Part shown: positions 8,133 to 52,261 of the stretch, piece by piece | Position numbering within the stretch: the first letter of the stretch is position 1 | How the letters are laid out: each line of letters begins with the position of its first letter | From: a virus | Strand: one strand, 5' to 3' | Virus genome (UHGV): UHGV-0299153 | Length of the DNA: 64,000 bases | Translations under genes and position numbers: made by a program | Notes under the pieces: generated by a model | The model's database searches: none | What the model saw: only the letters and a program-made list of their open reading frames with translations | What the model was told of the DNA's origin: nothing

Positions 8133-8749
8133 GTCTGCTCTTCTCCTACCATAAACGGCCCTACCTGGCAAGTGGAATAATTGACTAGCCATCAATCCCG
8201 CATACTGTACAAATATACATGGAAAATAACTATTGCATAATTTTTCATTGTGTGGTAGCAAGTCCATTTTTACCCGTTTTCTCTCCCAAAAGTGCACGTA
8301 ATGCCGCTATTGCACAAATTTTAACCTGATGCACATCTCCAATATCTTGTCAACAACTAAAAATCTTTATAAGTCATACACTTACACAGCATCGAAAGCG
8401 TGTTCTACGCGAAAAATCGAGTATAACTATAGCCGCCAGATCTCAGAATTCACGTACGCACGCCATTCTATAGCCTGCAAAGTATTTATTCCAACCACAG
8501 AATAACGGAATAGTCAATACCTGCATAAAATAATTATTCGTGTAAACTGCATAACATAAATCAGCTCAGGTGTCAACATTTTTCGTAAACAGTCCGAAAT
8601 TATCACGATGAGTTATCATAAACAGAGAAATCTTTAGTCGTCTAATGTTTACTGTACATTACTATACTGACTGGAATCATTAGATGACTAAGAGAAAGAT
8701 AAGAAATAATTAATAATGTAATTATTTTACCTGTAACAATAAGGCAACT

Positions 8750-9030
8750 ATGCAAACGAATGGCATGGCGCGACGGAGTCGCGACATAATATAAAAGCAG
8801 TAACCATCACCCCCGTGATAGTTTGTCTGCAAACTATTAATCAGATCATAGTTGCCTTGTATTTAGTTAATCGTGACATAACAAGCAAGGCAACTATAGA
8901 TCTTCTAATAGTTGCCCTGCTTTTATATTATGTCATAGAAACACCCGAAGGGGTGACCAAAGGTCACCTGGCATAGCCAGTGAAAGATTGTAAACAAGTT
9001 AATTATTATCATGCAAACGAATGGCATGGC
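8750..9030. repeat. 20-bp direct repeat ATGCAAACGAATGGCATGGC (8750-8769 and 9011-9030)
   Basis: Exact match read from sequence. Confidence 0.7.
8783..8934. repeat. 18-bp perfect inverted repeat GACATAATATAAAAGCAG / CTGCTTTTATATTATGTC enclosing GGCAACTAT/ATAGTTGCC sub-repeats
   Basis: Arms at 8783-8800 and 8917-8934; GGCAACTAT at 8743 and 8889, ATAGTTGCC at 8848 and 8908. Confidence 0.7.
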
Positions 9031-9042
9031 TTATCATCTCTG

Positions 9043-9097
9043 TGTAAATAGTTTGTTTGTAAACAGTTTATACGTGAACAGTTAGCTGTGTAAACTA
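9043..9097. repeat. Cluster of TGTAAA(C/T)AGTT-like iterons
   Basis: TGTAAATAGTT, TGTAAACAGTT, GTGAACAGTT, TGTAAACTAT within 55 bp; related copies near 8540, 8825 and 9359. Confidence 0.55.
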
Positions 9098-10585
9098 TCA
9101 GGCATGTCAATTATGCCCGGTGTGTTTAAGGTGCCCAGTATGTCAGACAAGTTTTTCTCCTCTTTGTCAAGTGCTGCATGAAAAATTTACAAACTGGTAT
9201 GGTAGCATTTTTGCGGCCCTGTTTACATTCAGTAATGTATGTATAATCCTTGTTGTGTGGGCGTTTAGACGTCTAGACGGTTGGAAGTCCACAGGTCAAT
9301 ATCTAATCTATCGGCTGCTAACTATATCCCACACAAATAGTAAGAAATATAATTGTTATGTGTGTAAACAGTAACTCATGTTATCAATCCCTGTATGGAT
9401 CGCCAGTGGTGCGCATAATGGGTATTATGTTAAATTGCCCGTAATGATAACTATTCTCACAATGATAGGTATTCTCATTCCCCCACACAAAATAGATTGC
9501 AAATGTTGTGCCACTATGTGAACGGCCTCACCTATTAATTTGCCTCACTGCCTCGATATTTGAGAATTATTATAAGAATGAGAAGTATTCCCATTCCGTC
9601 CGCCTGGCAGCACTCCAGTCGCTACCGCTCATGACAGGGCAGAACTGGGTCCATTCAGATATTTCTGGCTGACTCTTCAGGCCTGTGTGGGAAAAGCCAA
9701 CCTCTCCGGCGGCGGCGGGGAGGGGTTTGTCAGGAAAATTGCAGGTCAATTAAAAAATTTACGGGGTATATGAAGCGCTCTTCAGATAAGGCATGTATTA
9801 TGGGATGAAACCCTCTTCAGGCAATGATATTTGTGGGTGTGATATTTGCTGGAAAGCCAGATATGACGGGACTCCCGGCGGGGCAGGGGTAGTACAGACA
9901 GGGAAAATATGGAGGATGTGGTTGGGTAAATTGATCAGGCAGGTAGAGTATGGAATATGTTACAGGTATGTTAAATAGGGAGGCTGAATATCTGTAGGAT
10001 TTGTGTGTAAAATCAAAGACTTAAGGGGTGTTGTGGTATTTTCTATAAATAATTCAAGTTTAATAGGCAATATTTGTCTCTATCCGCTTTGTGTGGTAAA
10101 CAGATTCAGATTAGATTGGTTTACAAGTGTATACATAATATACAAATTAAAGATACAAGAAACCCCCCTCCCCCTTCGGCTACCATTCACCTTTTCCTCT
10201 GACTGGTACTTAAACACTTATTCAGACTTTTCAGGTTATCACCCATATACCATATGGCAGTGACTGGTGTCCTCCGGCCCCTCTTTCGTCACCCGTCCGC
10301 TTCGCCATGCTAATGCCATAGCCAATGGTTCGGTTGTTCACCCTGTTCACTCAGGTGTATCTCCATACCCCTTCAAACCGAAGAGAACAGAAAACCCGAA
10401 TTACTCGGTAAAAGAAAAGAGAAGAACTTAATTTTATCAGGATAGGCAAGAATGTCAAGGCATGACTGCTCACTAAACAAGCAAACAGTCATGTGTGGGA
10501 GGTAAGTGATTGTGGTGGTAGGAAATTTAGTTGAAAGATGTGTTATAGGTGCTCCCAGCACTTTAGCCGGGTAGCTAATTGTGTG

Positions 10586-10921: not shown

Positions 10922-11335
10922 TCATAGTCTACCACCTCTGAACTCTTCGTGCTCAGGCATAATAGAGAACCAGATATCTACGATGTCTTCCCACGTTAGG
11001 TCATCAGCCTCAGGATCTACCTGGAGCGAAGATGGAGAATCTTCAGAATCGAAGTTTTCCTCTTGCACTGGCTCAGTCAAGGGACATACAGTCACTCCTT
11101 TGGATGTCTCTTCAGATGCATGTGTGTTTATCATGTTCCACCCGTGAGTATTCCGGCAACAGCCACTATGGACGTAATGATCATCAGGATCACCACCAAA
11201 ACCTCTGACAATGTTTTCATTGTGTATCCCATATTCTCCAAACGATGTGTGGATACTATCACTGGAGCGGCAATGTGTCAACAGAAACGCCGCGAGGGTT
11301 TGGTTAAAATCCGAGCGTATGGTGATTTGGGTCAA
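10922..11335 (-). CDS. hypothetical protein (start uncertain)
   Basis: ORF track only; acidic C-terminus like neighbours; competing plus-strand ORFs. Confidence 0.3.
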   Translation of the reverse strand: MTQITIRSDFNQTLAAFLLTHCRSSDSIHTSFGEYGIHNENIVRGFGGDPDDHYVHSGCCRNTHGWNMINTHASEETSKGVTVCPLTEPVQEENFDSEDSPSSLQVDPEADDLTWEDIVDIWFSIMPEHEEFRGGRL

Positions 11336-11494: not shown

Positions 11495-11806
11495 CTATAC
11501 CCACGAGGGCTTATCAAGGTTGGAGTAGCTGAAAGGTGTCAAAAGGTGACTGTCAAAATCTCTCAAACTATCCAAATCTTTTTCCTCGTCCTGACACCAT
11601 CTGTGCCTACATTTGTTGTTGTAGTGCATGGAATGCATAGCGTTCTGCAACTTAACAGGCACAAGTGATTCAGGAGTAGATAGTATTGTTGGGTATGCCA
11701 GAACCACCTCAAACAGTGGAAACACATCGAAACTAAAGTCTACCTCTGCAGAGGTTGATGGCATATAGGAGTATTTAGCCGCCTTTGTAGACATAATCCA
11801 CCTCAC
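11495..11806 (-). CDS. hypothetical protein (103 aa)
   Basis: ORF track; start overlaps upstream gene end. Confidence 0.4.
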   Translation of the reverse strand: MRWIMSTKAAKYSYMPSTSAEVDFSFDVFPLFEVVLAYPTILSTPESLVPVKLQNAMHSMHYNNKCRHRWCQDEEKDLDSLRDFDSHLLTPFSYSNLDKPSWV

Positions 11807-12174
11807 ACAGGTTTGATAATACCTTCACCGAATAGCTCTTCGTATCTAATCTTGTCCGGATCCCACTCCTGTATAATTTCGAAGACAATATCCAACCCAG
11901 GAACAATCACTTCTCCAGTGTCAAGCTTAGCAAGAACAAAACCGGAAGGTTGAATGGTTTCCCAGTTACGGCGATCAGAATAAAATACTTCGAAAATATC
12001 GCCAACCTCAATCCGTTTCTGTTGCTCAAGATGCTCAAGGTTCTCTTTCATACGGATGCAGCGTATTTTTCGTGCAGGCCATAGACCACCTGCATCACGT
12101 TCATTCAATTCTTTTACAGTGATCGGTATACCCATCTCAAATCTCCTCCATAGATAGTAAAAAGAGGGGCCCAA
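11803..12174 (-). CDS. hypothetical protein (123 aa)
   Basis: ORF track; GGAGGAG SD upstream. Confidence 0.5.
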   Translation of the reverse strand: MGPSFYYLWRRFEMGIPITVKELNERDAGGLWPARKIRCIRMKENLEHLEQQKRIEVGDIFEVFYSDRRNWETIQPSGFVLAKLDTGEVIVPGLDIVFEIIQEWDPDKIRYEELFGEGIIKPV

Positions 12175-12931: not shown

Positions 12932-13195
12932 TCATTTATCCTTGCCGTCAAGAACTTTTTTAAATCTTTCAGGGATATCGCCTGTTCTTAGATAGCTCAT
13001 GACCTCACAAGGTTCCCACTTAAATTTCTTACAAAGCAGGGCGGCTGAGATTGTTTCATTGCGAAAAGAAAGGATATTAATATCCCATTCTGAGAACCCC
13101 AACTTCCGAAGGGTAGCTACAGAAATCCTCACCGCAACCCAGCAGCAAAAACATGCAACAAACGCCACTGCTATAACCCACATCAGGATGTTCAT
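12932..13195 (-). CDS. hypothetical membrane protein (N-terminal TM helix)
   Basis: ORF track; hydrophobic MNILMWVIAVAFVACFCCWVAV. Confidence 0.45.
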   Translation of the reverse strand: MNILMWVIAVAFVACFCCWVAVRISVATLRKLGFSEWDINILSFRNETISAALLCKKFKWEPCEVMSYLRTGDIPERFKKVLDGKDK

Positions 13196-13284: not shown

Positions 13285-13572
13285 TCATAGTGCCTCTAAG
13301 ATTTCATATCCTTCGGGTCGGAATACAAGCCACTCCGTGGCTCCGTTTGGTCGATACGCTTTATACAGAACAACCTGATCTCGGCACATGCACATAGCTA
13401 CATAGTTTTCATCCACACCTGCAGCCTGCATTGCAGCTTCTTCTCCGGCAACTGCTTTGCTTACAACCTCCTTGGTAGGCAGGTGTGCGATCAGCTCGTC
13501 ACCATCATTAATTCCAAAATGACTGAGTTCTCCATTGGTATCTTTAATCTTAATCTTAACCAGATCTTTCAT
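13285..13572 (-). CDS. hypothetical small acidic protein
   Basis: ORF in tightly packed leftward array. Confidence 0.5.
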   Translation of the reverse strand: MKDLVKIKIKDTNGELSHFGINDGDELIAHLPTKEVVSKAVAGEEAAMQAAGVDENYVAMCMCRDQVVLYKAYRPNGATEWLVFRPEGYEILEAL

Positions 13573-13901
13573 TAGTCTTCCTCCAGGTTCAAAGGCCCTA
13601 AGATTTCATATGCCAGATTAGAAGTTACCAGAGGGTCTTCTGCATCTTTAGTATTGTACCACCCGTGAATAACCAGAGTCCCACTTTGTTTCATGTCCAA
13701 CTGGAACTCTTCTGCCGTTTCCTCATCCAGCTCCAAGATTTCCATGAGGTATTTGATGTTAGGAAGGTATGCAGCTGTTACAGTTCCCTCCACCAAACCT
13801 TCGGGCCAACCTACATCCGGATGACAAGTAGGAACCAAGTTGGTCAACTTAATGGTGTACGCTTTTTCTGCACGAGCCTTCAGTAACGGGTCAATCTTCA
13901 T
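13572..13901 (-). CDS. hypothetical small acidic protein
   Basis: ORF in tightly packed leftward array; 1-nt junctions with neighbours. Confidence 0.5.
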   Translation of the reverse strand: MKIDPLLKARAEKAYTIKLTNLVPTCHPDVGWPEGLVEGTVTAAYLPNIKYLMEILELDEETAEEFQLDMKQSGTLVIHGWYNTKDAEDPLVTSNLAYEILGPLNLEED

Positions 13902-14251
13902 TATTCGTCCTCCTCTTCGGTGCCTGCTTCCAGTAATAAGTTAAGAATATCTTCTGCACAAGGCTCATAGAACTCTTGGCCTTCATTATCGATGATTTTG
14001 TAGTCATCTCCACGAATAATCAGTGGATCACTCTCAAAATTATCGAGACCTTTAACAACGACAACACGATCGATTGCCATCATTGTAAGAACTTTATCGA
14101 CATCTTCCTCTGCTACACCATACTGCAGCAGAATGTCTTTGGTAGGAGGAACAGCATCCACCACAACGCCGTTACCAAAACCTTCTGGAAGTTTAGCTAA
14201 AATATCTTCCGGAACCACATTCACATCAAAACCGGTAATTTCTACTTTCAT
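13901..14251 (-). CDS. hypothetical small acidic protein (paralog of 14252-14512)
   Basis: Shared EED...MM.ID..V.V block with neighbour. Confidence 0.5.
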   Translation of the reverse strand: MKVEITGFDVNVVPEDILAKLPEGFGNGVVVDAVPPTKDILLQYGVAEEDVDKVLTMMAIDRVVVVKGLDNFESDPLIIRGDDYKIIDNEGQEFYEPCAEDILNLLLEAGTEEEDE

Positions 14252-14512
14252 TTACAGCACCTCTTCGTCAACTACTTCATAAAAATGGCCTGGGATTGCA
14301 ATAGCGTTCTCACCTTCACCTACAAACACAGTTCCGTCAAGAATCAACATCATAAGAATGTCTGGAATATCCTCTTCCGGAACGTTGCCAAAACTTTTAA
14401 TCAGTTTGTAGGTTGGAAGATTTACCTCTAAGATGTCACCATCTTTAGAACGGAAATCTACACCGTCCTGAATCTCTGCCGTTTCAAGGTTTTTCAATTT
14501 AATCTTCATCAA
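14252..14512 (-). CDS. hypothetical small acidic protein (paralog of 13901-14251)
   Basis: ORF track; similarity to adjacent gene. Confidence 0.5.
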   Translation of the reverse strand: MMKIKLKNLETAEIQDGVDFRSKDGDILEVNLPTYKLIKSFGNVPEEDIPDILMMLILDGTVFVGEGENAIAIPGHFYEVVDEEVL

Positions 14513-14588
14513 TCAGTCTCCTGTCTTGTTAAGATGAAGGTATTATTTCACACAGGGTTGGTGTTGTCAACACCTGTGTGCAAGAAAA

Positions 14589-14984
14589 TTACTGAAACAG
14601 TGCGGATAAATTACCTTCTGGTGGGAACTTATCTGCCAAAAACGGTGTTAGCACAGTAGCCTTCTGAAGATCTGGGGTCCACTCGTTGTTCAGAACATCC
14701 CAGTAGTACGCAATGTTGCTGTGTGGGTGCCGCATTACGAACTTTTTCCCTTCGTAGTCATCTGAAACCTCTACAGAAGAAATAACAACAGAATCTTCAA
14801 GGGTTTCTTCATAGAAAGATCCGCCTTCAAATTTCCAACGAGATGCAAGAGCCCCTGCCTTGAACGCTGCAGATAACGGACTGTCGGCAAGAACATACAT
14901 TTCTTGCACTCTGTCGCTGCGATCTTTGCTTCTTACGTTGTACACAGTATCTGAGCTATACTCAACACGGTATAGGCTTACCAT
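14589..14984 (-). CDS. hypothetical protein (paralog of 16790-17188)
   Basis: Shared C-terminal HP.S...YW......WTP motif. Confidence 0.55.
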   Translation of the reverse strand: MVSLYRVEYSSDTVYNVRSKDRSDRVQEMYVLADSPLSAAFKAGALASRWKFEGGSFYEETLEDSVVISSVEVSDDYEGKKFVMRHPHSNIAYYWDVLNNEWTPDLQKATVLTPFLADKFPPEGNLSALFQ

Positions 14985-15343
14985 TACCGCACCTCCTCAA
15001 TAACTTCCACATCTGAACCCACCACAAATGCAAAAGGACAGGTTTCATGAAAGACATCCGGATCTCCGCCAAGCTTGCTAACAATTTCTCCACCACTAAT
15101 AAACACAAGCTCACCGATATTCATCAGATTGCTGAAATAGTATCCATAATGATTAAAGAATGCAGCAGGGTCAGGTAGACTAGTGGCCTCAAGTTCTACA
15201 TCGGTTGAGATTACTTTCTTATCATAACCTCTCGCCTTCTGAGATGCAAGATCCGCAGAATCTTCAGGCGACCGGAGATGCACAGGAATTGTTTCACCAA
15301 TAAAGCGTACTTTCATATTATCACCCAACAACCATAGCTTCAA
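14984..15343 (-). CDS. hypothetical small acidic protein (GSD/AGA family)
   Basis: ORF track; similarity to 15321-15584 and 17201-17455. Confidence 0.5.
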   Translation of the reverse strand: MKLWLLGDNMKVRFIGETIPVHLRSPEDSADLASQKARGYDKKVISTDVELEATSLPDPAAFFNHYGYYFSNLMNIGELVFISGGEIVSKLGGDPDVFHETCPFAFVVGSDVEVIEEVR

Positions 15344-15584
15344 AAGGGGTCATGAACGAATAAACGGCATCATCATCTGCTTCAGGGAATGCTCCCAAAG
15401 ACTTCATGTCTGAGCCCTTGACAAATACAAGGTTTTGATCAAAAGCTTCTTGGGGATCAATCCGATACATATTTCGTAGAATATCGCTTACCTCCTCATC
15501 AAGAGGTGAGTATGCTGTGCACGTTTTTCCGATCAAGCTTTGAGAATCAGGGTATCCACCTGAAGTTTTAAAATAAACAATCAT
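15321..15584 (-). CDS. hypothetical small acidic protein (GSD/AGA family)
   Basis: ORF track; VFVKGSD..SLGAFPE resembles VFILGSDLIAAGAPE. Confidence 0.45.
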   Translation of the reverse strand: MIVYFKTSGGYPDSQSLIGKTCTAYSPLDEEVSDILRNMYRIDPQEAFDQNLVFVKGSDMKSLGAFPEADDDAVYSFMTPFEAMVVG

Positions 15585-15674
15585 ATAGTATCACCTCTGG
15601 TAAGAGATGGGATTCCTTTCCCACAAATAATTACAAACCTTCCTTATCGAGGAAGTATGCTAATACAAGCAGGA

Positions 15675-15944
15675 TTATTCCTCTACAATCTCATACACAT
15701 CAGGAGTTACAATCAACTCTTCTCCGTTACCCGGTGCAATAAACACCACCAAACCTTCAGGTGTGTGCTTTTTAGCCATCTCGATAACATCTTCCCGCAG
15801 AGCTGGCTCCATCAGATCAAAACCTTCACCCAGGGCATCACGAACCACCTTCATATAGTCCACTGGTTGTGCTTCAACAATCATGCCTTCAACCAGACCA
15901 CAATTTTTGTCTGCCAGCTCAGTTTTGAATAATTTAATTTTCAT
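15675..15944 (-). CDS. hypothetical small acidic protein
   Basis: ORF track. Confidence 0.5.
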   Translation of the reverse strand: MKIKLFKTELADKNCGLVEGMIVEAQPVDYMKVVRDALGEGFDLMEPALREDVIEMAKKHTPEGLVVFIAPGNGEELIVTPDVYEIVEE

Positions 15945-16081
15945 TTAGAGGTCTCCTCAATTATTTGATATTAATAGCCGTAACCTAACACATTAACTAC
16001 AACTGCGATTGCAAACATAATTTCAAAGCATGCAATCTCTACATTTGGGACTAATTTCTTAATCACATCCATTGTAGCACC

Positions 16082-16399
16082 TCATTCTCCAAAGTCAATC
16101 TTTACTTTGCCTTTCCCCTTACCTTTCTTTCCACCGCATTTAGCCAGCTGACGTGCTGCAACATCTACCATACGGTCAGTTGCCTCGTAAGCATCACTGC
16201 CTTTAGCCTTGGCAATAACTTCTTTTCCAGAATTGTCAAAAATGAACGCCATAACTTCCTGGTGATCATTTTCAACTTTTACACTCACACGTGCATAGTT
16301 GGCAGATGGGTGCAAACGCTCCAGCTTAGACATTTTGTGGGAAATGAAAGACACCATACCTTCAGTGATTTCTACGTTGCCAGTGATTTCAATTTGCAT
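16082..16399 (-). CDS. ribosome hibernation promoting factor / RaiA-like protein (S30AE family)
   Basis: MQIEITGN-VEITE...KLE...VKVE...GKEVIAKAKGSDAYEATD..VDVAARQL aligns by eye with E. coli HPF MQLNITGNNVEITE...KLE...LKVEK...GGEIHASAEGQDMYAAIDGLIDKLARQL; AAGGAA SD; own promoter. Confidence 0.8.
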   Translation of the reverse strand: MQIEITGNVEITEGMVSFISHKMSKLERLHPSANYARVSVKVENDHQEVMAFIFDNSGKEVIAKAKGSDAYEATDRMVDVAARQLAKCGGKKGKGKGKVKIDFGE

Positions 16400-16446
16400 A
16401 ACGTGTTCCTTTTAAAGAAGAGGGAACCAAACCCTCTTTTAAAACA

Positions 16447-16475
16447 ATGATACTAAATCTGAAGCGTTGTGTCAA
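16447..16475 (-). promoter_or_regulatory. sigma70-like promoter for the HPF-like gene
   Basis: On minus strand TTGACA-17 bp-TATCAT, then leader hairpin (16419-16437) and SD. Confidence 0.5.
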
Positions 16476-16481
16476 CAGTTT

Positions 16482-16772
16482 TTACAGCTTGTCGTCGATA
16501 GTTTTTAAAATATCCACAGCAAGATCTGCCATTTTTCGAACATACTCTGCAAACTCAACAGGATCCTTGATCAAAGAATTCACAGGGTCGTACCCTAGAG
16601 CGTTCAAAATGGCTGCAGCATCTACAACCTTCTCATCATTTGCGAAGATCTCTCCATCAAACTTGTAGGTCCATTTTGAGTCAATCTTGGCAGGGAAGGA
16701 TTGGTCAACGCTTGTTACACCATCCTTTTTAAACTCTCCGGTGTTATCCGTGTCCAGAACTAAATCCATCAT
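16482..16772 (-). CDS. hypothetical protein (96 aa)
   Basis: ORF track. Confidence 0.5.
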   Translation of the reverse strand: MMDLVLDTDNTGEFKKDGVTSVDQSFPAKIDSKWTYKFDGEIFANDEKVVDAAAILNALGYDPVNSLIKDPVEFAEYVRKMADLAVDILKTIDDKL

Positions 16773-16789
16773 GTTAGTACCTCACTGTT

Positions 16790-17188
16790 TCAGTTTAGCT
16801 TTTCTTCAACAATCCCATAACTTGGGGCAGAGTCAAGAGCTTTCTGGTTTAAAAGTGGCGTAGCAGAATCTGCAAACGGTGTCCAAGTTTTTGTTCTGGC
16901 GTTCCAGTAATGCTTCACTCTGGAATCTGGATGCACTATAACAAAAACTTTTTCACTTGTCAACACATTAATTTCTTCCACACCCCTGCTGATAATTTCT
17001 CCGTCATATCCCCCGGTCTGGTATCCTTCGTACCAGGTTCTTGCATAGGCATAGCCAGCCTGCCAGCATGCAGCCTCCTCCGAGGTGGAGACTACGTAGA
17101 AGTCTTTCTCAAATTCTGGGATACGCCCTTGCTTTACGCTCCAAGCTCCGCGAATTTTCATTGTAACTTTGAATAGTTTATTTTTCAC
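16790..17188 (-). CDS. hypothetical protein (paralog of 14589-14984)
   Basis: Shared HPDS...HYW....TWTP motif. Confidence 0.55.
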   Translation of the reverse strand: MKNKLFKVTMKIRGAWSVKQGRIPEFEKDFYVVSTSEEAACWQAGYAYARTWYEGYQTGGYDGEIISRGVEEINVLTSEKVFVIVHPDSRVKHYWNARTKTWTPFADSATPLLNQKALDSAPSYGIVEEKLN

Positions 17189-17200
17189 AACGGTTACCCA

Positions 17201-17455
17201 TCACAGTTCTACAATATCTGCATCTGACCCTGCCCCAAAGGCATAATAGGACTCTTCCCCGAAATAATATTCCGGTGCACCAGCAGCGATCAGGTCTGAT
17301 CCCAAAATGAATACCACGTTGTGTCCTACATAGCTGTGATTTTGCCGCACAGGATCATCCCACGGCAACCCTTCGAAGTATACCGCAGGGACGACCTTTC
17401 CTTTCAGGAAGGATTGCCCCAAGTAGACGTTAGAATCAAGAATTTTAACCTTCAT
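17201..17455 (-). CDS. hypothetical small protein, DLIAAGA family
   Basis: Motif GSDLIAAGA shared with 17445-17672 and 21098-21331. Confidence 0.55.
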   Translation of the reverse strand: MKVKILDSNVYLGQSFLKGKVVPAVYFEGLPWDDPVRQNHSYVGHNVVFILGSDLIAAGAPEYYFGEESYYAFGAGSDADIVEL

Positions 17456-17672
17456 GATCGTCCTCCACTATCTCTACATCCTCACCTAGGGCAAAGTTGT
17501 AGGTCCACTGACTGTCAAAGCATTCCTGAGATGCACCAGCGGCAATAAGATCTGCCCCTTTTATTTTTAAAAGGTCAGGGTAATCTTCGTTAGGGACAGC
17601 AGTAAACACTTTCCCTACTAAAGGCTCCTGACCAATATAGAAGCTTGAATCTAAAACTTTAACTTTCATCAA
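17445..17672 (-). CDS. hypothetical small protein, DLIAAGA family
   Basis: Motif KGADLIAAGA; N-terminus MMKVKVLDSS parallels MKVKILDSN of neighbour. Confidence 0.55.
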   Translation of the reverse strand: MMKVKVLDSSFYIGQEPLVGKVFTAVPNEDYPDLLKIKGADLIAAGASQECFDSQWTYNFALGEDVEIVEDDHEG

Positions 17673-17956
17673 CGGTCTCCATCAGGTGGTTGTGGGACGT
17701 AAACACTGTTACGAATATCGTCCGCAGTATAGTAATAAGTGTCTCCAACCCTATCTCTGGCTGCAATGTACTCTGCTATACCAATAAGTGCCATTGATTT
17801 GGTGGCGTATCTTCCCAACTCGTTAGCTCCCCAGTAGAATTTAGACCAATAGGGAATAAGACCGAACAAATATACCTTTTGACGAACTTCCCAGTAAGTG
17901 CCTTTCCCGACAAGTTTAAACTCAACTTCACCACTGTTAATCTTTTTCATTATCAA
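17669..17956 (-). CDS. hypothetical protein (95 aa)
   Basis: ORF track. Confidence 0.5.
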   Translation of the reverse strand: MIMKKINSGEVEFKLVGKGTYWEVRQKVYLFGLIPYWSKFYWGANELGRYATKSMALIGIAEYIAARDRVGDTYYYTADDIRNSVYVPQPPDGDR

Positions 17957-18249
17957 TCTACCTCCACCGTGGTTGGATTGTCAGTAAGAAATTGAGCATT
18001 AGCTGGAGGCACGCCTGACATTTTCCACACAACCATAAGTTTGTAACCAGGCACTCTATTAAGTGCAGATCGAGTAGAGTTTGTGCACGTATATTTTCGC
18101 TTTCCAAACCCGTTTTCAAGCATGATCCAGTATCCCGTGTCTTTATCACCTGGAATTGGTAATCCCTCATCGTCCACCCACTGAATGGACCACGGCACGA
18201 TGGCTACAGCTTTATATTTAAACTTTTTAAACCACTCAAAAAGTTTCAT
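17953..18249 (-). CDS. hypothetical protein (98 aa)
   Basis: ORF track; preferred over nested same-strand ORF 17958-18170. Confidence 0.5.
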   Translation of the reverse strand: MKLFEWFKKFKYKAVAIVPWSIQWVDDEGLPIPGDKDTGYWIMLENGFGKRKYTCTNSTRSALNRVPGYKLMVVWKMSGVPPANAQFLTDNPTTVEVD

Positions 18250-18343
18250 AATTCAGCCTCGCATAGACATAATCACTATAAACAGGCAAACAATGAATCC
18301 GAATGCCACGCCACCCATAAACGTTAATATTGATGCAATCATG

Positions 18344-18529
18344 TCAATCAGCCTCGCTTGGCAACTCTTCCACCTTAACATGCCGAAAAGTGTTACCGTA
18401 ATGGTTGATCCATGACATCAGCTCACTTTCTTGCTCTTCCTCTGGGATGAACTCTCGAATACTGACAAGTTTTAAGAAAACCCAATCACAATCTGCACCC
18501 ATTCTACCAGACAGACAATAGTGCTTCAT
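18344..18529 (-). CDS. hypothetical protein (61 aa)
   Basis: ORF track. Confidence 0.4.
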   Translation of the reverse strand: MKHYCLSGRMGADCDWVFLKLVSIREFIPEEEQESELMSWINHYGNTFRHVKVEELPSEAD

Positions 18530-18548
18530 AAAAACCCTCCATCCTGGT

Positions 18549-18749
18549 TTAGAATACTGCCTCTTTTAATGATCCAAGGAGCAGCAGGTGTGAAATCTGA
18601 TCCACATCCATGGTAGATTCAATCTCCTCTTTTTTGAAAGGTTCTCGGCAAAACAGTACTACATTTGGGTTTTCGCTACGCACTATATAATACAGATCGT
18701 TCAAATCATTCTCATAGTAGGTATTAAATTTAAGAATTTTGTCACTCAT
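18549..18749 (-). CDS. hypothetical protein (66 aa)
   Basis: ORF track. Confidence 0.4.
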   Translation of the reverse strand: MSDKILKFNTYYENDLNDLYYIVRSENPNVVLFCREPFKKEEIESTMDVDQISHLLLLGSLKEAVF

Positions 18750-19033
18750 TTTCTAATCCTCTTCTTAGATTTTTGTGCAGAAACGCTTTCTGCAATACGA
18801 GACAGGCGTTCTTCTGAAGCTTTACCTACCCCAGGTTTCTTGAGCGGGTTATCTTTATGACCGCAATCCAATTGGATGCTAGATACCTCCCCAACCTTGT
18901 AAGTCAATTCTAACAAAAGGTTGTCGTCCTTGTCAAATGTTTTTACGATAAATTTTTTATCGTCCTCCTGAACTTCATACCTAGTACCTGCAGTATACAG
19001 CATGGTGCCATCAGTGTAGGATATCCAAATCAT
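18746..19033 (-). CDS. hypothetical protein (95 aa)
   Basis: ORF track; 4-nt overlaps with neighbours. Confidence 0.5.
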   Translation of the reverse strand: MIWISYTDGTMLYTAGTRYEVQEDDKKFIVKTFDKDDNLLLELTYKVGEVSSIQLDCGHKDNPLKKPGVGKASEERLSRIAESVSAQKSKKRIRK

Positions 19034-19377
19034 TGCACCTCCTTCTGCTGCAACAGCATTAACTCTTTGTTGGAAATCTTTACTGCTGTCTTTATTGTTC
19101 CATCTTCACGGAACCACGACCAGAATTCTACAGTGTCACCACTATCAAGCAAGGCATGACCATGGTAAAAATCCTTGTCCTTAGACAGTTTCTCATCTAT
19201 ATCTGCATCGACACATTCGTGATCCATAGCATTTTGCCTGAATGCATCGGTTATGCCAATGCATGCCTTGCTCTCAAGACTGGTATATCCGATATCTTTT
19301 AATTCAGTTTCCCAAGTCCAGTATCCTACAAAAGCCACAACAGCTACCCACATTAATATCGATTTAATCTTTGACAT
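19030..19377 (-). CDS. hypothetical membrane-anchored protein
   Basis: N-terminal hydrophobic LMWVAVVAFVGYWTW. Confidence 0.5.
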   Translation of the reverse strand: MSKIKSILMWVAVVAFVGYWTWETELKDIGYTSLESKACIGITDAFRQNAMDHECVDADIDEKLSKDKDFYHGHALLDSGDTVEFWSWFREDGTIKTAVKISNKELMLLQQKEVQ

Positions 19378-19437
19378 TCTCTCTACCTCTTTCTTAATTT
19401 GTTTAATTATGGCACATCCTTTGTGCCTTGTTGCACA

Positions 19438-19899
19438 CTACTTAAACAACAGTTCAAAATAGTGCAAAATTAACAGAAGTTGAATTACGCCTAGCACAAC
19501 AGCAAGTATGTTAATCTTAGAATCAAAAAACTTCTTAACTTTTACCCTAAAAGGTTCCTTAATGTCCTTTACGATCCTATCTATAGATGACCTCATATCC
19601 CTGATTACCATCCTGAACATTAAAGACGGATGATCCCTCTCTGTAACGGAATCGAAAACATACTCTCTTTGATCACAAGGGCCGCCAGCTCTGCGTATTA
19701 ACCTCTCCACAGAGACCTCGTACGACACACCTGTAACGTAATCATCTATGACAAGGAGTGACGGGTCTTTATCGTCCAAGGGTATCAAAGTTATCTTTCC
19801 AGATTTTGTTAAAATTTCTCCTTTTTCAAGTAAGGTGTACCAATGCTCTCTGCCAAGACTGTTGAGGCACGTTTTTACATATTTAACAAACATCGTCAC
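19438..19899 (-). CDS. hypothetical protein with C-terminal TM helix (153 aa)
   Basis: ORF track; C-terminal ILAVVLGVIQLLLILHYF. Confidence 0.5.
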   Translation of the reverse strand: MTMFVKYVKTCLNSLGREHWYTLLEKGEILTKSGKITLIPLDDKDPSLLVIDDYVTGVSYEVSVERLIRRAGGPCDQREYVFDSVTERDHPSLMFRMVIRDMRSSIDRIVKDIKEPFRVKVKKFFDSKINILAVVLGVIQLLLILHYFELLFK

Positions 19900-20099
19900 C
19901 CCTCATCGCACGTCTGATATAACCACTCTATAAAATCTTGATACCATTCGCCCTCTGAGCGCTCCGTAGGCCAATAATCTTCACCCTCTCGTGCATTAAA
20001 ATCTGAGTATTCAACTTTCCACTCCTTTACCAGCTCGTGGAGAAGGTTTTCAGCCTGCTCTAAAGATTTATTTTTTGCCATTGCTGTCTCCTTTTTCAA
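19896..20099 (-). CDS. hypothetical protein (67 aa)
   Basis: ORF track. Confidence 0.45.
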   Translation of the reverse strand: MKKETAMAKNKSLEQAENLLHELVKEWKVEYSDFNAREGEDYWPTERSEGEWYQDFIEWLYQTCDEG

Positions 20100-20164
20100 G
20101 ATAGTTATACATCAGAACTGCACCACCTAAGATGGCTACCAGTAACAATACCCCAGATAGCATC

Positions 20165-20362
20165 TCAATAAACATGGCTTGAAACACTGGAAGGTCTCCC
20201 TAAATTAACGCACCATTTTAAATACATGCTCTTTTCCCATAAAGGTGCCTGGCTAAGATCTGCGTAGAACGCAATCTCTTTAAGAACAGTATAAACAGTT
20301 TTAGGTGCGGTCTCCATCCCTACTCTCCTTTTTCTCCTTACGAATATTCTTGTAGTAATCAA
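20165..20362 (-). CDS. hypothetical protein (start uncertain)
   Basis: ORF track only. Confidence 0.3.
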   Translation of the reverse strand: MITTRIFVRRKRRVGMETAPKTVYTVLKEIAFYADLSQAPLWEKSMYLKWCVNLGRPSSVSSHVY

Positions 20363-20537
20363 CTAGGCACATTATTACGATGAAGATAACAATAGGCCAA
20401 AAAGGTGCAGCAGTGATGATGGTGATAAAATCATCAAACTTCACCTTTCGTCTAGACACGATGCATATACCTGTCAAGAATACCGCTGTTATAACGGCTA
20501 TTACCAGGTAACCTATTAGCACAACATTTATACTCAT
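20301..20537 (-). CDS. hypothetical membrane protein (two TM helices)
   Basis: Hydrophobic LIGYLVIAVITAVFLTGICIV and PFWPIVIFIVIMCLV. Confidence 0.45.
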   Translation of the reverse strand: MSINVVLIGYLVIAVITAVFLTGICIVSRRKVKFDDFITIITAAPFWPIVIFIVIMCLVDYYKNIRKEKKESRDGDRT

Positions 20538-20555
20538 TAGCCCTCCCTTTGTAGG

Positions 20556-21101
20556 TTAAATTGTATACTGCAGATGGTTGCTGATGGTGTCAAGAAAATT
20601 ATCCCGTTCTTTCTCAGAGTTTTCACGGGTGTATCTGAAAAACATATCGAGAATAACCTTATTGATATATTCCAGCTCCTCTGTGTTCAGGTACTTAGCA
20701 GGATCTACAATTACATCCCAAATATCATACAGACCACACTCATGATACCCATAACGCCACTCAATTGTCAAGCTGAGCGGCAAATCTTTACCGTCACAAA
20801 CAACCTTCCATCTACATATGTTGGTATCTGGGCGTACCTGTGCACGGTACACCTGTACAAAATCTAATTTAAATTTGAGGTACTCGTCATACAATTTAAG
20901 CACAAAGCTCTCGATTTGTGGAGACACTTTTGCAGCAAACTGTGCGTATTTGTACTTGCACTGGATGATCTTTCTGCGTTTTGCAGTTAAATTTTTTGCC
21001 GCTAGTTGTTCTTCAGTGTATCTCCACCTACGATCAACAAACGCAACAGGGTCTTTGTCCCCATAGAGGTCTTCCCAGTTAATCAGAAGCATACCTGTCA
21101 T
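20556..21101 (-). CDS. hypothetical protein (181 aa)
   Basis: ORF track. Confidence 0.55.
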   Translation of the reverse strand: MTGMLLINWEDLYGDKDPVAFVDRRWRYTEEQLAAKNLTAKRRKIIQCKYKYAQFAAKVSPQIESFVLKLYDEYLKFKLDFVQVYRAQVRPDTNICRWKVVCDGKDLPLSLTIEWRYGYHECGLYDIWDVIVDPAKYLNTEELEYINKVILDMFFRYTRENSEKERDNFLDTISNHLQYTI

Positions 21102-21331
21102 TCCTCCACAACTTCAAGGCCTTTGCCGCCTCGTTCTGGTAGATTACTTAAAGATAGGTAATACGTATAGTCAGGAGAGATCCTGCCAGACTCTGCACCT
21201 GCAGCTAATAAATCTTTTCCCTTAACCATGACAACATTATCGTTTGCAGATAGCCGTTTTGCTTCCACAATTTTACCAATGCAGTCAACCAAGGAAGGGT
21301 ACCCTAAATCTGTAAGAAATTTAACTTTCAT
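21098..21331 (-). CDS. hypothetical small protein, DLIAAGA family
   Basis: Motif KGKDLLAAGAE. Confidence 0.55.
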   Translation of the reverse strand: MKVKFLTDLGYPSLVDCIGKIVEAKRLSANDNVVMVKGKDLLAAGAESGRISPDYTYYLSLSNLPERGGKGLEVVEE

Positions 21332-22039: not shown

Positions 22040-22354
22040 CTACCAAGTTACTGTCAAGTAGGCAACCGTGTTATTTTTCTCTGGAGAGATGCCAACAACA
22101 TCTACCTGTAGACCTCCTGCCCTCAAATCCCCAACAATATGCGGGAAGTAATCTGAGAGATGCGAGGGTAGATTTATCGAAAATCCGCATCCCAGAAAGC
22201 CTGCTAACGCTTTATTTTGTATCTCCCCTACAATCGCATCATAAATGGAGTTAAGCTCGTCAGGGAGCGTTACAGGACGTTTTAGCGCTAACTGGTGTAA
22301 TTTGTCCTTAGCACTCATTTTCATTTCAGGTCTACCTCTGGTGGTGCCAACCAC
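22040..22354 (-). CDS. hypothetical protein (104 aa)
   Basis: ORF track. Confidence 0.45.
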   Translation of the reverse strand: MVGTTRGRPEMKMSAKDKLHQLALKRPVTLPDELNSIYDAIVGEIQNKALAGFLGCGFSINLPSHLSDYFPHIVGDLRAGGLQVDVVGISPEKNNTVAYLTVTW

Positions 22355-22854
22355 ATAAATGGCGGCAAGCCTAAACGGTTTTTCTTATCCCACACAAAAT
22401 ATGCATATGCTTGCCCGTCAGTTCTGCCATTTGATTGAAATGACGGACGCTTAGATATTGTGATCACAGTGGTAGGTGCATTATCAAGCCACCATTCAAA
22501 TCTGGCTTTGCTTTCCAGAAAATTAAGACGTAAAAGCATAATAACTACGTCAGCATCTTTCAACGCCTTGTCTACAAACTCACGAGCCAAGCTGTATGGT
22601 GGGTTGGTGATAATACAGTCAACATGGTTGTATTCTGTATTCAGATAGTCAACACCTTCTTGGATTTCTCCCCATGCAGATCCTAACGGCATACGGGAGT
22701 AGAACACACCTGAGGTACTATTCCTGCAAGGCTCTAAGTAGGTCCAGTCTTCTGGGAACGGAATAAGGTCATACAGCCCTTCTGCACACCACTCCGGTGT
22801 CACATACTCATCGTAGGCGTTACGTTGTTCATCAGGTTTTCTAGCACAAGTCAT
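22321..22854 (-). CDS. DNA methyltransferase (amino-methyltransferase, NPPY motif)
   Basis: CIITNPPYSL is the motif IV signature of N6-adenine/N4-cytosine DNA MTases; short (177 aa). Confidence 0.55.
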   Translation of the reverse strand: MTCARKPDEQRNAYDEYVTPEWCAEGLYDLIPFPEDWTYLEPCRNSTSGVFYSRMPLGSAWGEIQEGVDYLNTEYNHVDCIITNPPYSLAREFVDKALKDADVVIMLLRLNFLESKARFEWWLDNAPTTVITISKRPSFQSNGRTDGQAYAYFVWDKKNRLGLPPFMWLAPPEVDLK

Positions 22855-51447: not shown

Positions 51448-51522
51448 GCCCTGTTAGCTTAGTGGATAAAGCAGCGGCCTTCTAAGCCGTTGACACTGGT
51501 TCGAGTCCAGTACGGGGTGCCA
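51448..51522 (+). tRNA. tRNA-Arg (anticodon TCT)
   Basis: Cloverleaf folded by hand: acceptor GCCCTGT/ACGGGGT, anticodon loop CTTCTAA, T-arm ACTGG-TTCGAGT-CCAGT, encoded CCA. Confidence 0.75.
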
Positions 51523-51526
51523 AATT

Positions 51527-51613
51527 GGGGAGTTATCCCGTAGAGGTAGCGGTGTAGACTGTAAATCTATTGTCATTGCGACTCGGGTGGTTCGACTCCA
51601 CCACTCCCCACCA
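51527..51613 (+). tRNA. tRNA-Tyr (anticodon GTA), type II
   Basis: Acceptor GGGGAGT/ACTCCCC, anticodon loop CTGTAAA, long variable arm, T-arm GGTGG-TTCGACT-CCACC, encoded CCA. Confidence 0.8.
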
Positions 51614-51728
51614 AATTTATATTTTTTAGATGCATAAATAATACAGATAATGGCATTGATATTTATCGTCGTTTATACTAGTCACTAACTGCTCGAAAAT
51701 CAGTGTCATTATCAGTATAATTTATAAA

Positions 51729-51819
51729 GGAGGGTAGGGAGCAATGGTGCTCAAGCGGTCTTGAAAACCGTCCCGTTGAGGATGACTCGATGATGGTTCG
51801 ATTCCATTACTCTCCGCCA
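51729..51819 (+). tRNA. tRNA-Ser (anticodon TGA), type II
   Basis: Acceptor GGAGGGT/ACTCTCC, anticodon loop CTTGAAA, long variable arm, encoded CCA. Confidence 0.75.
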
Positions 51820-51917
51820 CATTGTTGACCTTGTAATTAAGCGAAAGCCGGAAGCAGAACCGGATTATCAAATGTTACAGTCGTCATCGCCGACTAGCAA
51901 CATGGTCAACATATTGA

Positions 51918-52014
51918 GCTAGGTAAGCCCTTTGGCAAGGGCGAGGATTTTTAATCCTGAAAATAGACGAGGTAGTCGTTGAATACATAGGTGGTTCGAT
52001 TCCACCGCCTAGCA
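51918..52014 (+). tRNA. atypical tRNA-like gene (anticodon loop TTTTTAA, apparent UUU; about 30-nt variable region)
   Basis: Acceptor GCTAGGT/GCCTAGC, D-arm GCCC-TTTGGCAA-GGGC, T-arm GGTGG-TTCGATT-CCACC; only a 4-bp anticodon stem; no encoded CCA. Confidence 0.45.
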
Positions 52015-52021
52015 CCTTTTT

Positions 52022-52097
52022 GCTGATGTAGCACAATTGGTAGTGCAATTGATTTGTAATCAATAGGTTGCGGGTTCAAGTCCTGCCATCAGCACCA
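52022..52097 (+). tRNA. tRNA-Thr (anticodon TGT)
   Basis: Acceptor GCTGATG/CATCAGC, anticodon arm ATTGA-TTTGTAA-TCAAT, encoded CCA. Confidence 0.75.
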
Positions 52098-52098
52098 T

Positions 52099-52173
52099 GG
52101 CCCTGTAGCTGGAAGGTTCAAGCAAGCGACTCATAATCGCCAGACGGTGGTTCAATTCCACCCAGGGCCACCA
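52099..52173 (+). tRNA. tRNA-Met (anticodon CAT; could be an Ile-lysidine type)
   Basis: Acceptor GGCCCTG/CAGGGCC, anticodon loop CTCATAA, T-arm GGTGG-TTCAATT-CCACC, encoded CCA. Confidence 0.75.
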
Positions 52174-52184
52174 AATAGTAGATA

Positions 52185-52261
52185 CTCCGCGTAGCTCAGC
52201 TTGGTAGAGCGCCTGATTTGGGATCAGGAGGTCGAGTGTTCGAATCACTCCGTGGAGACCA
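52185..52261 (+). tRNA. tRNA-Pro (anticodon TGG)
   Basis: Acceptor CTCCGCG/CGTGGAG (one GU), anticodon arm CCTGA-TTTGGGA-TCAGG, T-arm GAGTG-TTCGAAT-CACTC, encoded CCA. Confidence 0.75.

Follow-up and report, generated by a model that had tools for sequence, protein, structure and literature searches.

What are the small genes that crowd the leftward block of rV5-like phages, are they related to one another, and which part might they play in infection? The question arose from a 64,000-nucleotide (nt) stretch of the virus genome UHGV-0299153 (referred to as the window), in which a sequence-only reading had pointed to expanded paralogous families of small acidic proteins between positions 13285 and 21331 and had suggested host-takeover or anti-defence roles for them. 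We report that twelve minus-strand genes in this region constitute three lineage-restricted accessory families, A (five members), B (two) and C (five), and we consider, with moderate confidence, that they encode host-strain-specific infection factors, most probably acting in counter-defence.

Over positions 13285 to 21331, identity is 98.2% to Escherichia phage FFH2 and 97.6% to rV5; the region matches 122 phage records, almost all belonging to the genus Vequintavirus. Eighteen GenBank records named 'Campylobacter phage' are 96-98% identical to the region, and given this identity to an E. coli Vequintavirus region their host labels look doubtful. According to the rV5 genome paper the region lies on the minus strand, inside the transcription unit of genes 82-163; the paper mentions neither paralogues nor gene families (literature searches gave no description of the A, B or C paralogues in it), and in the rV5 annotation all genes of interest are 'hypothetical protein'.

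Three paralogous gene families

The 36 minus-strand genes between 10.3 and 22.9 kb were translated and compared all-vs-all. Permutation tests comprised 10,000 double shuffles per pair, and in the leave-one-out analysis a hidden Markov model (HMM) of the remaining groups was run against the 473 open reading frames (ORFs) of the window. Genes are named by their leftmost position (see the table); every ORF that the sequence-only reading had named is present, on the minus strand and where it had been placed. BLASTP, shuffles, leave-one-out HMMs and hhalign confirm that the paralogous families are real, and that there are three. Beyond doubt are the pairs 17201-17445 (BLASTP E 6e-15, shuffle z 25), 14589-16790 (E 1e-9, z 17) and 17445-21098 (E 2e-7, z 16), and the median pairwise z was 6.7 within family A and 3.4 within family C compared to a background of -0.14 (276 pairings of unrelated proteins encoded in the block).

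Family A consists of exactly the five genes that had been proposed, i.e. 14984, 15321, 17201, 17445 and 21098. The scores of the pairs 14984-17445, 14984-17201, 15321-21098, 15321-17201 and 15321-17445 were reached by 0-9 of the 10,000 double shuffles, and each member, when left out, was ranked top of the 473 ORFs (E 2e-20 to 3e-5; next ORF E >= 0.2). A profile of 58 sequences built from metagenomic relatives and four window genes (A5, with 14984 excluded) matches 14984 at 8e-7, and no sixth member was found with it among all window ORFs. The family consensus is MKVKLL..GGY.G....G.vv.A......I.G.(D/E)LI..GA....F.....Y.F....E.E(I/V)VE. The start of 14984 is most likely at position 15316 (110 amino acids, aa), as in rV5 gp143. 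Genes 17201 and 17445 are mutual closest relatives, and two natural chimeras in which the 17445 N-terminus is joined to the 17201 C-terminus (P0014 and P0017) show that the tandem copies have recombined.

Family B comprises 14589 and 16790, as had been proposed, and these are 27% identical over 119 residues in BLASTP with an hhalign E of 5e-8. The motif ascribed to them is present at the C-terminus, with the spacing HP.S....YW......WTP in place of HP.S...YW....WTP.

For family C the proposed relationship of 13901 and 14252 stood (0 of 10,000 shuffles reach the score; hhalign E 1.6e-4), and the family was extended from two to five members by adding 13285, 13572 and 15675. Each of the five was recovered by leave-one-out at rank 1 of 473 with E 2e-8 to 2e-3, any other ORF having E >= 0.65, and the within-group z is higher than that of the background pairs (Mann-Whitney p 3e-7). 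The added pairs are weak singly, with scores reached by 8 to 937 of 10,000 shuffles, and the three genes were chosen after sequence inspection, which makes the grouping partly post hoc; the leave-one-out recovery would be hard to get by chance despite this choice. By eye, the five genes have in common an N-terminal MKIK(L), a central (L)PT...EED...M..DG.VV and a C-terminal YEI(V/L).

Two further observations concern family C. The 98-aa sequence P0089, from a 657-bp ENA contig, combines an unrelated N-terminal half (Pfam PF24132) with the C-terminal half of a 13572 orthologue, a further sign of recombination within small genes. Residues 11-56 of 14252 resemble residues 61-108 of the DNA methyltransferase encoded at 22321-22854, around its NPPY motif (EIQDGVDF... 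and EIQEGVDY...; NLPTYKL and NPPYSL; 1 of 10,000 shuffles; hhalign E 1e-4), and this likeness may be due to chance as the two segments do not agree in predicted secondary structure.

Part of the paralogy is already implicit in public clustering, since PHROGs groups A genes and B genes. The profile phrog_5009 matches 17201, 17445 and 21098 at 1e-32 to 1e-38 and 15321 weakly (1e-4), while phrog_7379 matches both B genes over the whole profile at ~1e-66 to 1e-73; these, and phrog_13920 and phrog_13661, which go with phrog_5009, are all of 'unknown function'. PHROGs differs from the present grouping in that A is divided into three groups and C into four or more singleton groups, and in giving no fold, function or arrangement. 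Sequence and profile searches of Pfam, NCBIfam and PDB with families A, B and C returned nothing meaningful.

Gene order and promoters

Read as transcribed, the block runs 21098 (A), other genes, 17445 (A), 17201 (A), 16790 (B), 16482, a promoter, the gene of an HPF homologue and a small ORF, followed by 15675 (C), 15321 (A), 14984 (A), 14589 (B), a second promoter, and then 14252, 13901, 13572 and 13285 (all C). Hence there are two A-A-B cassettes, 17445-17201-16790 (cassette 1) and 15321-14984-14589 (cassette 2), plus a run of C genes. For an A-A pair directly before both B genes p is ~4e-4 under random order of 25 genes, the pattern having been spotted post hoc. En-bloc duplication of an A-A-B cassette does not fit the similarities among the A genes, as 17201/17445 is the closest pair and 15321-14984 the second weakest; an origin by tandem duplication, or by gene conversion inside cassette 1, is as likely.

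The genes were said to overlap often by 1-4 nt, and this is correct for 1-nt overlaps at 13572, 13901, 14984 and 17669 and 4-nt overlaps at 18749, 19033 and 21101; in addition, there is a single 11-nt overlap (17445/17455), and elsewhere gaps of 0-20 nt are seen together with two of ~80 nt, each of which carries a sigma-70-like promoter. The assignment of the block as 'early' rests on these promoters, and the literature search gave no data on the timing of transcription. Likewise, the description as acidic applies to eleven of the twelve proteins (isoelectric point, pI, 4.05-5.4) and not to all members because 16790 has a pI of 7.8. Between the two cassettes, at 16082-16399, lies a homologue of the ribosome hibernation factor HPF/RaiA with its own sigma-70-like promoter upstream; in Escherichia phage Bas54 this homologue is non-essential on both E. 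coli K-12 and strain CFE311 (bioRxiv 10.1101/2025.11.20.689424).

Host-specific requirement

In a preprint reporting transposon insertion sequencing (Tn-seq) of phages, essentiality was mapped in Bas54 (phage MaxBurger; bioRxiv 10.1101/2025.11.20.689424). The twelve window genes are 94-100% identical to bas54_0146-0153, 0157-0159 and 0166, and the orthology of bas54_0150, 0151, 0152 and 0157 is supported by 97-100% identity. On K-12, nine of the orthologues are classified as 'Non-essential' and 0151-0153 as 'Intermediate' (Extended Data Table 8, bioRxiv 10.1101/2025.11.20.689424). The resampling table whose header names the CFE311 sample contains 27 significant genes. Among them, the mean insertion count drops from 142 on K-12 to 0.0 on CFE311 for bas54_0152 (15321; log2 fold change, log2FC, -7.16), from 71 to 0.0 for bas54_0151 (14984; log2FC -6.17), from 108 to 0.0 for bas54_0150 (14589; log2FC -6.77) and from 256 to 57 for bas54_0157 (16790; log2FC -2.14), all with an adjusted p of 0, while bas54_0153 (15675) has a log2FC of -2.78 that is not significant (bioRxiv 10.1101/2025.11.20.689424). 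Thus, all twelve orthologues are dispensable on the permissive laboratory host K-12, and those of 15321, 14984, 14589 and 16790 are required or depleted on CFE311, a clinical isolate of uropathogenic E. coli. Loss of insertions on CFE311 is a signature of host-specific or counter-defence genes. In the copy of Extended Data Table 8 that was used, the K-12-vs-CFE303 and K-12-vs-CFE311 sheets contain the identical table, both with CFE311 headers.

The main text of the preprint pursues only bas54_0063 and bas54_0140, both presented as needed to overcome DS-28 and tested against DS-28 and Gao_Tmn, and 0150-0152 and 0157 are unmentioned (bioRxiv 10.1101/2025.11.20.689424). The gene bas54_0140, which is reported to be required to overcome the predicted defence system DS-28 (bioRxiv 10.1101/2025.11.20.689424), resembles the family genes in being small and of unknown function, in lying in the same leftward block, and in being non-essential on K-12 with a log2FC of -5.5 on CFE311; it differs in that it has no sequence similarity to A, B or C and in that its defence partner was identified experimentally.

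Selection and natural deletions

In comparisons of 6-7 genomes, drawn from the window and six other Vequintavirus genomes, each of the twelve genes has a ratio of nonsynonymous to synonymous substitution rates (dN/dS) of 0.05-0.18. This is close to the values for ClpP, PhoH and the methyltransferase and indicates real genes under purifying selection. There was no sign of gene-wide diversifying selection within the genus, and diversification in an arms race, as had been suggested, is therefore not borne out at this level; divergent alleles (56-74% identity) exist in some assemblies of ~52-137 kb. The viable isolate Bas59 lacks the part corresponding to window positions 16876-20695, thereby losing 17201, 17445 and most of 16790, and Bas54 lacks 18014-19863, such that block deletions in natural isolates span 1.9-3.8 kb. 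These deletions, together with the Tn-seq classes on K-12 (non-essential or intermediate), indicate that the proteins are accessory.

Distribution and mobility

Word-indexed homologue searches returned Vequintavirus orthologues almost exclusively (40, 55 and 6 clusters), and only an exhaustive search widened family A. Families B and C were not found outside Vequintavirus-type genomes in the homologue searches, and in Seunavirus and Mydovirus the syntenic stretch downstream of the genes for the ClpP-like protein and the methyltransferase has other small genes, members of A, B and C being absent. The exhaustive search with the A profile against 1.84 billion representatives gave 83 clusters (50% identity) at E <= 1e-3, half of whose lengths lie below 73.5 aa (median); no A member matches a Pfam family. 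One relative (P0031, 309 member sequences) is located between the Q antiterminator and holin genes of a lambdoid E. coli prophage, and likewise in phage mEp554; this site, between Q and the lysis genes, is a moron-type region. Proteus phage RS51pmB has a further relative within a row of small genes, one podophage-like contig carries two neighbouring A copies, and the contigs of two distant A relatives are too short to show a gene context. Six of 76 newly found metagenomic A representatives have two or three A domains per polypeptide, and others are fused to unrelated C-terminal regions. Judged from these sequence contexts the A domain is mobile among unrelated phages. Pairwise action of A domains is suggested by the A-A adjacency here and in the podophage-like contig and by the A-A and A-A-A fusions found elsewhere.

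Predicted structures

The AlphaFold2 model of the family A member 17445, based on 36 homologues, has a predicted local distance difference test score (pLDDT) of 93 and a predicted template modelling score (pTM) of 0.81. It is a five-strand small barrel (strands at residues 2-5, 21-23, 33-37, 56-61 and 65-69) with a short helix (38-43) after strand 3. For 14252, modelled from the alignment of the five C groups, pLDDT is 87.5 and pTM 0.75, with five short strands and two helices inserted between the second and the third. C members carry an insert between strands 2 and 3, and so do the two long A members, 15321 and 14984. Structure searches with the two models returned SH3-type barrels for both, and A and C are predicted with high confidence to be single-domain SH3-like beta-barrel mini-proteins, a fold class that includes SH3, the Spt5/NusG KOW domain, PsaE and the retroviral integrase C-terminal domain. 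BFVD models of small proteins from many phages, among them the large lytic phages RB49 (Q76ZG7), Citrobacter phage Merlin, Shigella phage Sf20 and Klebsiella phage ZCKP1, superpose on the A model with TM scores of 0.65-0.84; these look-alikes are all unannotated and share 14-25% sequence identity with it, homology being unproven.

A and C as one sequence superfamily was considered and is not supported, the profile-profile similarity not being significant. The cross-family z is barely raised (p 0.03), and we treat A and C as two families of one predicted fold class because their alignment is limited to the first 28-29 columns.

Function

We favour counter-defence as the most economical reading given dispensability on K-12, patchy distribution, mobility, the adjoining validated anti-defence gene, and four genes required or helpful on CFE311. 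Small acidic single-domain barrels are most plausibly protein binders. Each protein would act stoichiometrically by binding a host protein, possibly inhibiting an immune protein, and the paralogues would supply different or partly redundant specificities; the requirement on CFE311 would then reflect an immune system of that host. Neighbouring A proteins may work as a pair, together with B, as the A-A and A-A-A fusions elsewhere suggest. A bolder version, which we find rather doubtful, is that the A-A-B cassette represents a three-protein counter-defence module in which an A heterodimer serves as adaptor that presents or activates B against an immune system of uropathogenic E. coli. The second cassette would provide a diverged, partly redundant specificity, and A would be a widespread, so far undescribed anti-defence domain that moves between enterobacterial phages of lytic and of temperate lifestyle.

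Several points weigh against the counter-defence reading. The host-takeover or anti-defence role that had been suggested for the block is partly supported, by CFE311 depletion and K-12 dispensability, for three to four of the twelve genes, and the other eight have no phenotype on CFE311 (bioRxiv 10.1101/2025.11.20.689424). The evidence for a conditional phenotype is drawn from a single preprint supplement and a single strain, CFE311. The 'Intermediate' class of 0151-0153 on K-12 hints at a general fitness role, and insertions in the adjoining 15321 and 14984 could have a local polar effect on 14589. With respect to the structures, the alignment behind the C model assumes homology of the five C groups, and hhalign comparison of A with C was without significance, covering the N-terminal columns only (E 5e-4 to 9e-3, probability 4-32%).

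It is possible, albeit unlikely in our judgement, that the proteins are general host-takeover or fitness factors acting on conserved machinery, e.g. translation, and that the CFE311 phenotype reflects strain physiology and not immunity. The intermediate class of three orthologues on K-12, the HPF homologue between the cassettes, and purifying selection equal to that of neighbouring metabolic genes are in keeping with this. However, full non-essentiality on K-12 applies to nine of the twelve genes, parts of the block are missing from two viable natural isolates, and confinement of B and C to one genus, with other small genes in that place in related genera, is atypical for factors directed at conserved machinery.

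We regard it as quite unlikely that CFE311 demands only one gene of the trio in cassette 2, the B gene 14589 being the simplest candidate, that the phenotypes of 14984 and 15321 are polar, and that the A and C paralogues have no related role. The three genes are consecutive (4 nt apart and with a 1-nt overlap) and the next promoter is downstream of 14589; moreover, the second B gene has a phenotype and its two upstream A genes have none. By the authors' description, however, the transposon allows read-through: the T4 transposon is said to carry no terminator, the Bas54 library was made by the 'same procedure', and the authors argue against widespread polar effects (bioRxiv 10.1101/2025.11.20.689424). 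In addition, insertions in 0158 and 0159 are not depleted although these genes lie upstream of the depleted 0157 (bioRxiv 10.1101/2025.11.20.689424), which argues that polarity is not strong.

Acidic DNA-mimic anti-restriction proteins of the Ocr/ArdA/Arn kind are a very improbable identity for the family proteins. The acidity of eleven of the twelve, their small size and the host RNA polymerase promoters that drive the block would suit it, whereas known DNA mimics are elongated or helical and the folds predicted here are compact SH3-like barrels, and no sequence match to solved structures was obtained. Vequintavirinae are also reported to be exceptionally susceptible to restriction-modification systems (PMC8594841), which makes classical anti-restriction unlikely and leaves the anti-restriction activity that had been raised for the block unsupported.

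Finally, that the shared blocks are a chance or compositional likeness of small acidic ORFs is refuted by the permutation tests and need hardly be entertained: there are borderline pairs, e.g. 14984-21098 (score reached by 2,089 of 10,000 shuffles) and 13901-15675 (937 of 10,000), but each A and C member is the single best of 473 ORFs by leave-one-out profile, the z medians of A and C stand well apart from the background, and PHROGs independently joins 17201, 17445 and 21098 (15321 weakly) as well as both B genes.

Neighbouring features

Between the rightward and leftward gene blocks, at 8300-10370, there are ~2 kb without a convincing ORF at a peak of the cumulative GC skew. This segment contains TTGTAAACAGT-like and ATAGTTGCC-like repeat motifs, an exact 20-nt repeat at 8750 and 9011, and a perfect 18-nt inverted repeat at 8783 and 8917. 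The equivalent region has no transposon insertions in Bas54 (bioRxiv 10.1101/2025.11.20.689424), and for this reason the segment may serve as an origin or as some other cis element that is essential. The ORFs 12932-13195 and 19030-19377 have near-identical N-terminal hydrophobic segments (ILMWVIAVAFV and ILMWVAVVAFV; 16 of 10,000 shuffles; hhalign E 1.2e-4) and may be membrane-anchored paralogues, which would add a fourth group to the three families. The leftward block is variable at its distal end. There, the 137-aa acidic ORF 10922-11335 has no counterpart in six other Vequintavirus loci compared, and 11803-12174 has a full-length counterpart in one of these six; Bas54, which is outside the six, has an orthologue of the latter (bas54_0141, 92%). 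On the plus strand, 51448-52261 carries a cluster of seven tRNA genes: Arg, Tyr, Ser, Thr, Met, Pro and a seventh for which an odd 4-base anticodon was called.

Table 1. Family genes, promoters and one context gene of the leftward block (window coordinates)
Position	Strand	Feature	Support
11495..11806	-	Context gene, orthologue (99%) of bas54_0140; unrelated in sequence to A-C	
13285..13572	-	Family C, 95 aa, orthologue bas54_0146	leave-one-out E 6e-5, top-ranked
13572..13901	-	Family C, 109 aa, orthologue bas54_0147	leave-one-out E 9e-4, top-ranked
13901..14251	-	Family C, 116 aa, orthologue bas54_0148	leave-one-out E 2e-8; 0/10,000 shuffles vs 14252
14252..14509	-	Family C, 85 aa, orthologue bas54_0149	
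14542..14570	-	Sigma-70-like promoter, extended -10 (TG), between cassette 2 and C run (rV5 P150)	11/12 consensus matches; annotated in rV5
14589..14984	-	Family B, 131 aa, orthologue bas54_0150 (99%), third gene of cassette 2	phrog_7379; BLASTP; hhalign
14984..15316	-	Family A, 110 aa, ~50-aa insert, orthologue bas54_0151, second gene of cassette 2	leave-one-out E 5e-6; profile A5 8e-7
15321..15584	-	Family A, 87 aa, insert between strands 2 and 3, orthologue bas54_0152 (100%), first gene of cassette 2	leave-one-out E 3e-5; phrog_5009 1e-4
15675..15944	-	Family C, 89 aa, orthologue bas54_0153	leave-one-out E 1.6e-3, top of 473
16447..16475	-	Sigma-70-like promoter upstream of HPF gene (rV5 P144)	11/12 consensus matches; annotated in rV5
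16790..17188	-	Family B, 132 aa, pI 7.8, orthologue bas54_0157, third gene of cassette 1	phrog_7379; BLASTP to 14589 E 1e-9
17201..17455	-	Family A, 84 aa, orthologue bas54_0158, second gene of cassette 1, 11-nt overlap with 17445	
17445..17669	-	Family A, 74 aa, orthologue bas54_0159, first gene of cassette 1	
21098..21331	-	Family A, 77 aa, pI 5.4, orthologue bas54_0166	phrog_5009 6e-36; leave-one-out E 2e-9; non-essential on K-12, no CFE311 phenotype

Conclusions

The genes do not constitute a new kind of system, as over 100 public genomes carry them, PHROGs already clusters them in part, and phenotype data on them are public. New are the five-member composition of family C and the predicted SH3-like fold class that A and C share, the two A-A-B cassettes, and the link between the families and a conditional-essentiality signal that had gone unremarked. 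Also new is the A domain as a so far undescribed family, fairly widespread and occurring in tandem and in fused form, for which Pfam has no entry. Phages of the rV5 type rank among those most often isolated from E. coli and are considered for therapy and biocontrol, and most of their genes are unannotated; here, twelve 'hypothetical' genes are assigned to three families, with two predicted fold classes. A testable shortlist is provided by the orthologues of 15321, 14984, 14589 and 16790, which may lead to a new interaction of phage and host, or of phage and defence system, by which host range is limited on a uropathogenic strain.

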